DNA of 64,000 nt, taken from positions 1-64,000 of the IMG/VR virus record IMGVR_UViG_2931369376_000001. One strand, 5' to 3'. The position numbers and the translations under genes are program-made. Positions 21,669 to 26,147 of the stretch are shown piece after piece. The first letter of the stretch is position 1. Every line of letters begins with the position of its first letter. The stretch comes from a virus. Lineage: Duplodnaviria > Caudoviricetes. The notes under the pieces are model-generated. The model worked only from the letters and a program-made list of their open reading frames with translations, was not told the DNA's origin and searched no databases.

Positions 21669-22307
21669 TTAACTCACGGCGAGCCGATCAGCCGGGTACT
21701 GGCGCAGGAAATCGAAGCTTTCATGCGCTGGCGCCGTCAACCAGTCCCGATACAGGCCTTTGGGCAATATCACCACCATGCGCTTCTCGTCGTCGGGCTT
21801 GTGGTAGTTGCGCATAAATTCGTGGTCATCGGCGTTGACGGTCAACATGGTGTAGCTGTGCAACACCTGGCTCGACGCTGGATCGCGCCAGCGCTCCCAC
21901 AGGCCTGCAATACCCATCGGCTCACCGTCTGCCCGGACGATGCGCGTAGCGATGGCCTTACCCGTTCGCCAATCCGGCTCATAGATTGCCGCCGCCGGGA
22001 TAATGCAGTGCTGGGCCCGACGCCAGGCGTTTCTGTAGGAAGGCTTCTCGGCTACGGTTTCGGAGCGGGCGTTATACGTGCGCCGGGCAAGCTTGGTGTC
22101 TTTGCTCCAGGTCGGAATCAGGCCAAAGGAACCCGGCATTACCTCTGCCGCCTGCGTGGCGCCCTCCCCGTCCTGTTCGGGATCGATTGCGCGAATGAAT
22201 GGACCCAGGTACCCAGGCCACAGGTCTGTCTTGGTCTGCTCTGGCAGTGCCAGGCCGAACGCCATCCTCAGTTGCGCCGCTGTAGGCGCTTCGTAGTGGC
22301 TGCACAT
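21669..22307 (-). CDS. SOS response-associated peptidase (SRAP/YedK/HMCES)
   Basis: N-terminal MC (Cys2), TYNARSET, HCIIPA..IYE, KRMVVIL. Confidence 0.9.
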   Translation of the reverse strand: MCSHYEAPTAAQLRMAFGLALPEQTKTDLWPGYLGPFIRAIDPEQDGEGATQAAEVMPGSFGLIPTWSKDTKLARRTYNARSETVAEKPSYRNAWRRAQHCIIPAAAIYEPDWRTGKAIATRIVRADGEPMGIAGLWERWRDPASSQVLHSYTMLTVNADDHEFMRNYHKPDDEKRMVVILPKGLYRDWLTAPAHESFDFLRQYPADRLAVS

Positions 22308-23972: not shown

Positions 23973-24268
23973 CAGCGGACCGACCTGGTAGCCGTGACGA
24001 TGCCGGCTTTTTGCTTGAGATAAGCCAGGTGTTCTTTGGTGGGCAGCACCACGTCTTGCTCCACCAGCTCGCTGTCTACCGTCGACAATCCAGCAGCGGC
24101 CATAACCACCAGCGTTTCAGTAGCATCACCGTAGACGCGCAGCGCCATCATCGGCAGGTGATAGCGCTCACTCGGGAAGCTGCGCACTACCTGGCGGCGG
24201 GACGAATAGGACGGCTCGGTCAGTGCGAACTTGCGCACCTCCAGATAAAACCGGGCTTCGGGGATCAT
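23972..24268 (-). CDS. P1 gp26-like baseplate (LysM/tail X-like) protein
   Basis: LPMMALRVYG....VVMAAAGL....VLP. Confidence 0.6.
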   Translation of the reverse strand: MIPEARFYLEVRKFALTEPSYSSRRQVVRSFPSERYHLPMMALRVYGDATETLVVMAAAGLSTVDSELVEQDVVLPTKEHLAYLKQKAGIVTATRSVR

Positions 24269-24294
24269 TGGGCGGCCTCTGTGAACACCCGGGA

Positions 24295-24335
24295 ATTATC
24301 CGGGCATCACCAGCGGCGCCGGCGAGGCACTTTGC
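24295..24335 (-). promoter_or_regulatory. late promoter (gp26-25-7 operon)
   Basis: GCAAAG-N29-GATAAT. Confidence 0.6.
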
Positions 24336-24362
24336 GCGACTCGAGGACTTTGAGACAGGCCG

Positions 24363-24393
24363 AAAAAAACCGCCCCAGCCGAAGCCAGGGCGG
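24363..24393 (-). terminator. rho-independent terminator of the small-peptide unit
   Basis: CCGCCCTGGC-TTCG-GCTGGGGCGG followed by a T run on the minus strand. Confidence 0.8.
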
Positions 24394-24409
24394 CCCCACC
24401 TATCAGACC

Positions 24410-24508
24410 TTACAGGCCATCAAAGTAGTCTCGCAGCAGTTCGTATGTGTGATGAACACGCACACAAACCACCACGAAGTCCCACGCACGTCTTAACAAC
24501 TTAGACAT
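24410..24508 (-). CDS. 32-aa peptide, candidate type I toxin
   Basis: MSKLLRRAWDFVVVCVRVHHTYELLRDYFDGL; AGGAGG 7 nt before the ATG; structured leader; own terminator. Confidence 0.65.
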   Translation of the reverse strand: MSKLLRRAWDFVVVCVRVHHTYELLRDYFDGL

Positions 24509-24939
24509 ACACGGCCCTCCTGTTGCTGGGCCGTCCTCCAGCACGCTTACCGGAACACGCGTGCCTTCGGGACACTTCACCAAGCGTTCCCTGTGAGGCG
24601 GCTGGGCTGATGGCCTCCCAAAACATCCTCCGGCACGGGTTCCTAATCCGTGAAGGGAGGGCCAAAATTCGCGCGCAGGCCCGGCCAACTCAAAGGTGAC
24701 GCACGCGGAACGGCCCCATCTTACCCCATAAATCTTCAGGTAATGCGCGGCGCCGTGGCTCATTTTGCTAGACTGCCCGCAAGGCTTCTTGGTGTTTTAT
24801 AAAACGTTATTTCCGGGCACCTATACCCGCCCAAGCCGATCACGGGAAAACGCCCCCTAAACGATGACAGGCGATTAACGGGAGTGAAGCAGCGTTATTC
24901 CCCATTGCGTCATTGATCAAATGTGAATAACATTATCTC

Positions 24940-25026
24940 CACACCAAGCGTTCCCTGTGAGCGAGCAAGCCCAACCCCTAATTGGATTTGCAAAGAAAGA
25001 CCGCCTCTCCTAAGGCGGTTTTTTTT
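24940..25026 (+). ncRNA. candidate antitoxin sRNA (~87 nt)
   Basis: TTGCGT-N17-TAACAT promoter (24905-24933); 5' 20 nt identical to 24578-24597; internal hairpin; terminator ACCGCC..GGCGGT plus T run. Confidence 0.65.
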
Positions 25027-25050
25027 CGCCTGCATTTTCCCCGGCCAGAC

Positions 25051-25075
25051 AAAACAAACCCCGCACAAGGCGGGG
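25051..25075 (-). terminator. rho-independent terminator
   Basis: CCCCGC/GCGGGG stem followed by TTTGTTTT on the minus strand. Confidence 0.6.
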
Positions 25076-25346
25076 CAATGTCCAACAGACGCGCTACTCC
25101 TGGTCCTGCCACTTCCTGTGCGGCCAGGTCTTATCGGTATATGCCATGGCGGCTTCCCTGCTGCTGAAGCGCCTGCGCATCACCTTGTCAGGGTGCCCTT
25201 TGTCCTTGGGATCGCCCGTGATGTAGGGCGCCCAGGCCAACCAATAGTCAGCTTCAGGCTCATCATTCCAGCCATGGGCTGCGAAGCCCCTGCGCCGTCA
25301 ACTCGCGTCCAGCTGCTTGGCCGGAACTCACTCCACAGCGACACCT

Positions 25347-26147
25347 CTAGCCCGCCATCAGGGTGGCGCCATCGGCACCTTTCAGTCGCTCACTCTCTTC
25401 GTCCAGGCATAGCAAGCACAGGGCCTCAAGCTCACGTTCTATCCGGTCGCCGGGCTTTGTCAGCGCGATGAGGCCCCGTCTATCCACATGAGGGGCCATA
25501 CGTGCCATTTGGCTCGCCAGCGTTTCAATGGGCGGGCACTTGATCGCCTTCATGATGGCGCCCTGCTTGTAGCGGTCGAACGTCAACGCGTAGCCGTCCA
25601 GGTACTGGGCGCGTAATGGTTCGCTTTCGGGGCGGCACTGAAGGTTAACGGAGTCCCAGGTAAAGCTGAGCGACGGCATGCGATTCAGCAAGCGCGGGAG
25701 GTCGCAGCACCACGAAAGCCCGTGAATCAAGACACGAGGTGACTCAAGCGCGGAGGCATAGACCGCCAGCTTTTGCACATAGGCTTCCTGCTTGTCGTAG
25801 TCCACGCTCCCGTTAACTGTTCGATCGCTCAGCAACACCGCCCGCCGGCGCCCGCCAGTGCTTCGAGCTGGGGCCACGATGAAGTGGAAGGCGTAGAACC
25901 GGTATCCGTCGCACAGCACGGTAATGAGGTGTTCGAACGCTTCCCCAGGCTTGATTGGACCGTCCGCCAGCGCGGCCTCTACCAATCCGGGCACGTCGCT
26001 TGGCTTCAGCGAAGGGCCCGCCGGGCGGTATTTCTTTCTGTAGCTGTCATATGGCGTGGCCGCTGGAACCTTGGAGTAAGGAACCTTGCTGAGTTGCCCC
26101 GTGCGCGCACGGAATGCCAGGTTATCGTCGTGCCGGCTGCGCTTCAT
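25347..26147 (-). CDS. hypothetical protein
   Basis: Start at MKRSRH, ATGA-coupled to the LytTR gene. Confidence 0.65.
   Translation of the reverse strand: MKRSRHDDNLAFRARTGQLSKVPYSKVPAATPYDSYRKKYRPAGPSLKPSDVPGLVEAALADGPIKPGEAFEHLITVLCDGYRFYAFHFIVAPARSTGGRRRAVLLSDRTVNGSVDYDKQEAYVQKLAVYASALESPRVLIHGLSWCCDLPRLLNRMPSLSFTWDSVNLQCRPESEPLRAQYLDGYALTFDRYKQGAIMKAIKCPPIETLASQMARMAPHVDRRGLIALTKPGDRIERELEALCLLCLDEESERLKGADGATLMAG

Follow-up and report, generated by a model that had tools for sequence, protein, structure and literature searches.

The window analysed here, a stretch of 64,000 nucleotides of viral DNA, is colinear with the 80,993-bp record CP048608.1, a plasmid of Pseudomonas fluorescens DR133 from the soybean rhizosphere. 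In that record the interval 24268-25347 holds zero annotated features, and we asked what this gap encodes and what it might do for the DNA that carries it. A first-pass annotation, made from the letters alone, had placed here an unannotated type I toxin-antitoxin-like module, in which a divergent sRNA would pair with the leader of an mRNA for a 32-residue peptide.

Two divergent transcription units between terminators

The unit that we delimited, 24363-25026 (about 660 bp), has a terminator at either end and comprises a leftward mRNA and a divergent sRNA. The predicted mRNA is a small-protein message of ~349 nt on the minus strand (24363-24711), with its +1 at 24711, the G of GUUCCGCG, and its 3' end at an intrinsic terminator (24363-24393, minus strand) that consists of a GC stem, a UUCG loop and a U-run (T-run 24363-24369). 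Its 32-codon ORF with stop, MSKLLRRAWDFVVVCVRVHHTYELLRDYFDGL, occupies 24410-24508 on the same strand (codons 24413-24508, stop 24410-24412), and AGGAGG stands 7 nt 5' of the ATG. On the plus strand, a promoter at 24905-24933 (TTGCGT at 24905-24910, 17 nt, TAACAT at 24928-24933) precedes a predicted sRNA of ~87 nt (24940-25026), which is composed of a single-stranded 5' seed (24942-24961), a hairpin (24965-24991), an A-rich linker and an intrinsic terminator (24993-25026) with a GC-rich stem and eight T, the last at 25026. Between the divergent promoters lies a variable spacer (24712-24904), and the predicted starts are 228 nt apart in the window (195-246 nt among 14 close modules).

The two units share a 20-mer, CACCAAGCGTTCCCTGTGAG, of which the window contains exactly two copies (24578-24597 and 24942-24961), each on the plus strand. 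No third site with up to 3 mismatches was found in the window, two matches arose in 0 of 100 shuffles, and the rest of the 80,993-bp record has no further copy. The first-pass annotation had noticed this pair, and the searches bear it out; the second copy can indeed be read as the head of a plus-strand unit with the promoter, hairpin, T-run and length that it had listed, and the first copy falls, as it had said, 70-89 nt 5' of the minus-strand ORF.

To place these elements in an evolutionary frame we turned to homologues. By blastn the stretch 24363-25043 was found in four more Pseudomonas plasmids (from P. lurida, P. fragi pAd12, pD4A-46 and pSDM007), where the neighbouring genes are entirely different and no annotation lies beneath the match. 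Alignment of the plasmids gave two conserved blocks, mRNA and sRNA, each of which stops at its own terminator, with a spacer between them in which the modules cannot be aligned. By pattern scans the cassette was also located in contigs from genomes, viruses and metagenomes, and further members were found in P. syringae pPT14-32 and in a faecal virome contig; a search of a phage collection by DNA gave no match. Two loci were set aside: L006, from a Burkholderiales MAG, matched the pattern and is not homologous, and L035 is a junction at a contig edge in which the 5' part of the ORF is joined to spacer and sRNA, probably an assembly chimera.

The promoters keep their places in these homologues. 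Every sRNA is preceded by TTGnnn, 17-18 nt and TAnnnT, ending 7-8 nt before the seed, in a position conserved throughout. At every mRNA a TAnnAT box lies 6-7 nt 5' of the invariant GUUCCGCG, surrounded by DNA with no other conservation, so that a -10-like hexamer is held in place in 14 homologues despite the unalignable spacer; in the window it reads TAAGAT (24718-24723, minus strand), with a weak or unclear -35. Since the conserved mRNA block starts exactly at GTTCC in all homologues, with the TAnnAT box just upstream, it would begin at the predicted +1, 24711. The two promoters thus differ: that of the sRNA has a clear TTGnnn -35 box, whereas that of the mRNA has a -10 box only and a poor -35. 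No LexA box (CTG-N10-CAG) was seen by eye in the window spacer, 24712-24904.

RNA libraries from three studies yielded short whole contigs that span 24479/24485 to 24622/24638/24700, that is, the leader only. They end at 24479-24485, in the 3' strand of a long-range helix described below, and they come without strand information; we take them as a weak hint of leader transcription. The first-pass annotation had named RNA-seq as a check on both transcripts, and to the extent of this hint the leader is covered, with the sRNA outside the contig cover. The gap over the sRNA and the 3' half of the ORF is uninformative, as these are contig data and libraries of this kind usually lose small RNAs.

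Pairing of the sRNA with a structured leader

In the window, the 5' 20 nt of the sRNA are perfectly complementary to the leader site (24578-24597, minus strand), with a predicted duplex energy of -47 kcal/mol. The 87-nt sRNA itself folds at -29.8 kcal/mol (z -4.2). One half of the target site lies within a stem and the other, variable half within a 14-nt hairpin loop. The seeds of the 14 close modules fall into four classes, and within a module both copies always belong to the same class: 8 seed positions changed on both partners with Watson-Crick pairing kept, and the duplexes have sharp ends and a length of 20-22 bp. Across 21 positions in 14 modules (294 cells) we counted 284 Watson-Crick pairs, 7 wobbles and 3 mismatches, as compared with a mean of 48.6 mismatches after shuffling of partners, which gave 3 or fewer in 0 of 10,000 trials. 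Cognate duplexes were also the most stable ones, at -42 to -51 kcal/mol versus -22 to -40 kcal/mol across seed classes. When all loci were passed through one uniform pipeline, 29 distinct modules with 27 distinct targets were obtained, and in each of the 29 the module's own sRNA carries the matching sequence. Distant members, which were found via the peptide, are built in the same way around new seeds, and in some of them the otherwise constant core CUCACAGGGA is altered on both partners.

Repeats that change together could also be DNA-level sites, either operators in direct repeat that a protein of the host or the plasmid would bind, or the product of gene conversion, and the 20-mers are indeed direct repeats on one DNA strand, identical within each module. 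The differences that do occur between copies speak for RNA. Over all modules, single-position differences amount to 9 G-U wobbles versus 3 mismatches, and the transitions among them to 9 wobbles versus 1 mismatch, where a repeat maintained at the DNA level would give about half. For the 14 close modules, reading the strands the other way round turns the 7 wobbles versus 3 mismatches of the proposed orientation into 1 versus 9. This bias towards wobbles in one strand assignment only supports RNA-RNA pairing in that orientation and argues against DNA sites. Moreover, the module encodes no DNA-binding protein, the second copy always stands at the 5' end of a promoter-hairpin-terminator unit, and the sequence differs in 27 of the 29 modules, so that no common host protein could read it. 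We consider DNA-level sites scarcely credible. Type I systems are recognised by an antitoxin RNA that base-pairs with the toxin mRNA, and at the computational level such a pairing was found here.

We also considered whether the variable half of the seed is the most variable part of the leader. Conservation is lower in the target's variable half than in the rest of the leader (65% versus 83%), but leader columns 87-104 vary more. The data therefore give no support for diversifying selection on the seed.

The mRNA that bears the target is itself highly structured. In the window its minimum free energy is -163.3 kcal/mol (z -4.1), and an RNAalifold consensus of 14 sequences contains 87 pairs. Pairs changed on both sides number 13, versus 6.3 in shuffles (0 of 500 reached the observed value) and 2-5 in structures with slid partners, and 96.8% of cells are paired, versus 32-49% with slid partners. 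The 5' terminus of the transcript (24698-24711, minus strand) forms a long-range helix with the ORF (24479-24492), which in the window comprises 14 bp and codons 6-10; its 8-bp core, GUUCCGCG/CGUGGGAC, at codons 7-10, is invariant in 13 sequences. A hairpin at 24511-24534 (minus strand; stem 24511-24517/24528-24534, ACGGCCC/GGGCCGT) partly covers the Shine-Dalgarno (SD) sequence AGGAGGG at 24515-24521. In this hairpin (helix 8) the closing pair changes from CG to UA in 4 of 13 distinct sequences (5 of 14 alignment rows), and the module L018 has a compensated variant of this hairpin, GGCUC/GAGCC. A second hairpin covers the AUG, and the mRNA terminator (helix 14) shows compensatory changes at 4 pairs. 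With the SD and AUG locked in hairpins and the 5' end paired to codons 6-10, the primary transcript is probably poorly translatable.

A closed translation start is a feature of type I toxin mRNAs such as those of hok, tisB, zorO and aapA1, and on the predicted structures the start of the present mRNA appears to be closed in a similar way. A structured mRNA with a closed start, combined with a stronger promoter for the sRNA, is a further type I characteristic, and both parts were found here, in the SD and AUG hairpins, the 5'-end/ORF helix and the -35 box. On the RNA side the first-pass annotation has thus held up well. Its SD sequence 7 nt before the ATG, partly in a stem at 24511-24517/24528-24534, its UUCG terminator and its highly structured leader were all found again, the last with a covarying consensus, and the complementarity it had proposed between sRNA and leader is matched by seeds that covary in 29 modules and by a wobble bias that fits its strands.

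Some leaders carry an additional small frame. An upstream GGAGG, which pairs with a CCUC in the target region, is followed by an AUG in six leaders (L008, L011, L013, L014, L016 and L017; A2 columns 182-200), and this AUG opens a 12-codon uORF, MAQLREGQVCLS. Other modules have ACG at the position of the uORF start, so the uORF is not conserved, and no overlapping leader ORF conserved across modules was found.

The 32-residue protein

Given so much structure, the ~350-nt RNA could itself be the product, for instance by acting as a sponge or decoy that binds the sRNA, or as a riboregulator of another kind, with an incidental ORF. The leader is more conserved than the ORF (83% versus 77%), the RNA is highly structured, and it is the leader, not the ORF, that the RNA-library contigs span, all of which suits a functional RNA. 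The ORF, however, has the marks of selection on a protein. Its start, its stop and a strong SD are conserved in every module; variation at the three codon positions is 22/21/37, the third being the most variable; and indels come as whole codons in the ORF versus 1-2 nt in the UTR. The motifs M-x-K...R-x-W and Y-E-[FL]-L-R-D are retained in spite of divergence at the nucleotide level, leaving RAW near the N-terminus and YE[LF]LRD near the C-terminus as terminal signatures. By these signatures the ORF is evolving as a coding sequence, and we regard an RNA product with an incidental ORF as very unlikely.

Searching with a peptide profile extended the family. Among 1.84 billion representatives, 25 clusters (50% identity) were found, mostly of 32-33 aa, some of them mis-called with N-terminal extensions; two long matches, P0018 and P0028 (572 and 654 aa), are low-complexity and repeat-like and were set aside. 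A peptide-homologue search with a covarying seed had been proposed as a check in the first-pass annotation, and the profile did lead to distant members whose new seeds are matched on both partners. The peptide has no family in Pfam, NCBIfam, PHROGs or PADLOC, and a search of the ESM Atlas returned low-scoring, nameless clusters only.

Structure prediction with AlphaFold gave one helix, residues 3-31, with a pLDDT of 84. The GRAVY of the peptide is ~0, and its best 15-residue Kyte-Doolittle window scores 0.1-1.5, versus 2.6-3.2 for TisB, ZorO, ShoB, DinQ, Fst and IbsC (indicative values only). An amphipathic, coiled-coil-like helix was considered and rejected, as the hydrophobic moment was not above that of shuffled sequences. 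The peptide therefore does not have the character of the small hydrophobic or membrane toxins of type I systems. Such a toxin is typical of type I and not universal, SymE and RalR being exceptions. Lacking hydrophobicity and a significant hydrophobic moment, and predicted to be a soluble single helix, the peptide is unlikely to act by the usual membrane-toxin mechanism. Of the proposal in the first-pass annotation, a type I toxin-antitoxin pair with a layout like that of tisB/istR, the RNA part stood, and the hydrophobic or transmembrane character seen in the tisB, zorO and shoB toxins did not.

Taking the RNA and protein analyses together, the cassette is very probably an sRNA-controlled small-protein module. 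We infer repression by the sRNA, and its manner, as follows. A weak leftward promoter would produce the ~349-nt mRNA (24711 to 24363) for the conserved 32-aa helical protein, and the stronger divergent promoter the ~87-nt sRNA (24940-25026). The unstructured 5' end of the sRNA would nucleate on the loop of the leader hairpin and extend into a duplex of 20-22 bp, which, 70-89 nt 5' of the AUG, would block synthesis of the protein, either by leading to RNase III cleavage or by masking a site for ribosome standby or activation. If the sRNA were lost along with the DNA, the protein would be made and the cell harmed, and the carrier replicon or island would thereby be stabilised.

Spread, relatives and possible function

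Whether the protein is indeed harmful may be judged in part from where the cassette is found. A Pseudomonas census by blastn with the 349-nt mRNA, centred on a module-carrying Pseudomonas genome, covered 401 sampled species genomes and matched 58 of them (~14%); together with the plasmids and the phage-plasmid this is a considerable range for a family that is unannotated. Many of the matches lie at megabase positions on large contigs, some genomes have two copies, and the chromosomal copies include intergenic sites amid housekeeping-type genes. Two genomes contain chromosomal tandem arrays of two modules with an own sRNA for each copy (L053 at G182:C42:42600-45600 and L058 at G071:C1:803700-805900), in which one hairpin terminates both the first mRNA and, on the opposite strand, the second sRNA. 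In L058 the two seeds are clearly different; in L053 the second leader resembles a recent duplicate of the first and is a better match to sRNA 1 than to the sRNA of its own module, which suggests gene conversion. The sRNA was absent from two examined loci only, L026, where the 5' part of the mRNA has been replaced, and L036, where it has been deleted. These data are best explained by a self-contained and, judging from its contexts, horizontally mobile two-gene RNA module.

In the lineage of the window the cassette comes and goes. In the related phage-plasmids pKF715C and P. atacamensis SM1 plasmid the genes on the left side are retained and repA occupies the site of the cassette, so that the cassette is accessory here. 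The first-pass annotation had proposed it as the addiction module of the plasmid prophage or as a means of abortive infection; the former role fits poorly, as the cassette is not part of the lineage core, its site being empty of it in those two plasmids, and as most members of the family across Pseudomonas are chromosomal or accessory. In both plasmids (loci L019 and L020, respectively) a gene for 'replication initiator protein A' stands to the right of the homologue of a 98-aa gene. In the window, 25100-25344 (minus strand) contains an unannotated, frameshifted copy of a gene for a hypothetical protein of ~85 aa, with residues 4-26 and 27-85 in different frames, followed by a minus-strand terminator at 25058-25076; at ~71% conservation the DNA of 25100-25344 recurs in over 100 megaplasmids of Pseudomonas, among them P. 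koreensis p2, P. putida S12 pTTS12 and megaplasmids of P. aeruginosa. As repA is found where the window has the cassette and this decayed small gene, the replication region of the lineage seems to have been exchanged here.

The main rival to a toxin is the same RNA circuit with a non-toxic small protein, an establishment, anti-defence or regulatory peptide, which would be made in a burst on entry into a cell before the sRNA accumulates, or under stress that lowers the sRNA. The RNA-level results fit this equally well, the peptide resembles a soluble single helix rather than a membrane toxin, and in conjugative plasmids the cassette sits amid small genes of the leading-region type, including those for ArdR antirestriction, ParB and DUF932. 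What such a helper peptide explains less easily is that the cassette travels alone, terminator to terminator, into varied contexts that include chromosomal intergenic sites, and that it forms tandem arrays with separate sRNAs, behaviour that is typical of selfish type I loci. In addition, the sRNA is missing only where the 5' part of the mRNA had already been destroyed (n=2 in this sample). Solo mobility, multiple and tandem copies with their own sRNAs, and loss of the sRNA only beside a damaged mRNA are suggestive of a selfish or toxic nature and are not proof of it. Against a toxin-antitoxin pair counts that some chromosomal copies have 2-3 mismatches to their own sRNA. On balance we rate a non-toxic peptide as rather unlikely and lean, by a narrow degree, towards a true toxin-antitoxin pair of the type I kind with a putatively toxic protein.

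Among known type I systems, tisB/istR-1 is similar in having a divergent, separate sRNA, a 5' seed of ~20 nt that pairs 70-100 nt 5' of the RBS, a long structured leader, a toxin ORF of ~30 codons and a primary transcript that is translationally inert (as predicted here). It differs in that there is no sequence or Rfam similarity, that the present peptide is not a hydrophobic transmembrane helix, and that tisB/istR-1 is a single SOS-regulated locus whereas the locus here is mobile and multi-copy. The pairs zorO/orzO, shoB/ohsC and dinQ/agrB likewise have a divergent sRNA with ~18-20 nt of complementarity to the 5' UTR; their toxins are hydrophobic and their reports enterobacterial, in contrast to the cassette family in Pseudomonas. 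Post-segregational killing is the role of hok/sok, found in plasmid R1 and its relatives, which resembles the cassette in plasmid carriage, a highly structured mRNA, a long-distance interaction of the 5' end and a sequestered SD. Sok, however, is encoded in cis, as an antisense RNA overlapping the mok/hok leader, whereas ~230 nt separate the sRNA gene here from the start of the mRNA, with no overlap; Hok is a membrane protein of ~50 aa made via mok coupling, and the cassette has neither feature and no Rfam match to this system. RalR is a DNase about twice as long as the 32-aa peptide. According to PMC4041452, ralR/ralA of the rac prophage is a type I system with a trans-encoded sRNA, a complementarity of 16 nt and a non-membrane toxin, which makes type I control compatible with a non-hydrophobic toxin; the two peptides are dissimilar, and the pairing site here is in the 5' leader. 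Duplication also has a parallel, since zorO-orzO/zorP-orzP is, according to PMC3919570, a duplicated locus and in this resembles the tandem arrays.

No Rfam family was found in the whole window at gathering scores. Sub-threshold matches to Thr_leader, ohsC and RNAI were rejected as terminator look-alikes; the ohsC model, for example, matched a terminator hairpin with 20 bits (gathering score 50) and E = 4.3. In a survey of 339 P. syringae genomes known type I families were undetected, bar a doubtful hok-like match (PMC8790059). The literature searches, which extended to peptide motifs, turned up neither a characterised type I system from Pseudomonas nor a description of the cassette family. 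As Rfam, Pfam and the literature gave no match, this looks like a new family, as the first-pass annotation had supposed; on its sequence features it is a strong candidate for a new type I toxin-antitoxin-like family, a variant with a non-membrane peptide whose toxicity is presumed. A fuller proposal, which we put forward tentatively, is that of a Pseudomonas-wide type I family in which a predicted soluble 32-residue helix would act on an intracellular target rather than the membrane, under dozens of diversified, mutually insulated sRNA/leader addresses. If true, these addresses would set paralogues and competing replicons apart by an RNA-based incompatibility code, and the soluble 32-aa helix, if toxic, would define a new class among the type I toxins, one with an intracellular target. 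The family further offers at least 27 co-evolved sRNA/target pairs, a natural series of compensatory mutations for the study of sRNA specificity and cross-talk, and it could be used for annotation models of a missed gene pair and as a compact cassette under RNA control for stabilisation or counter-selection in Pseudomonas.

Two neighbours recur beside the cassette. A conserved small ORF beginning MSITLDL..., just past the sRNA terminator and on the sRNA strand, is found in many of the plasmid and viral contigs, namely L004, L005, L007-L009, L011, L013 and L014, and corresponds to the 64-aa hypothetical protein WP_099168934.1 in pSDM007. It is missing downstream of the cassette in the window, L002, L003 and L012, and may be a frequent neighbour rather than a part of the module. 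A gene for an SRAP (SOS response-associated peptidase) lies within 1-2 kb of the cassette in the window (21669-22307) and in the distant members L028 and L029, a proximity that may reflect coincidence or shared phage-plasmid ancestry.
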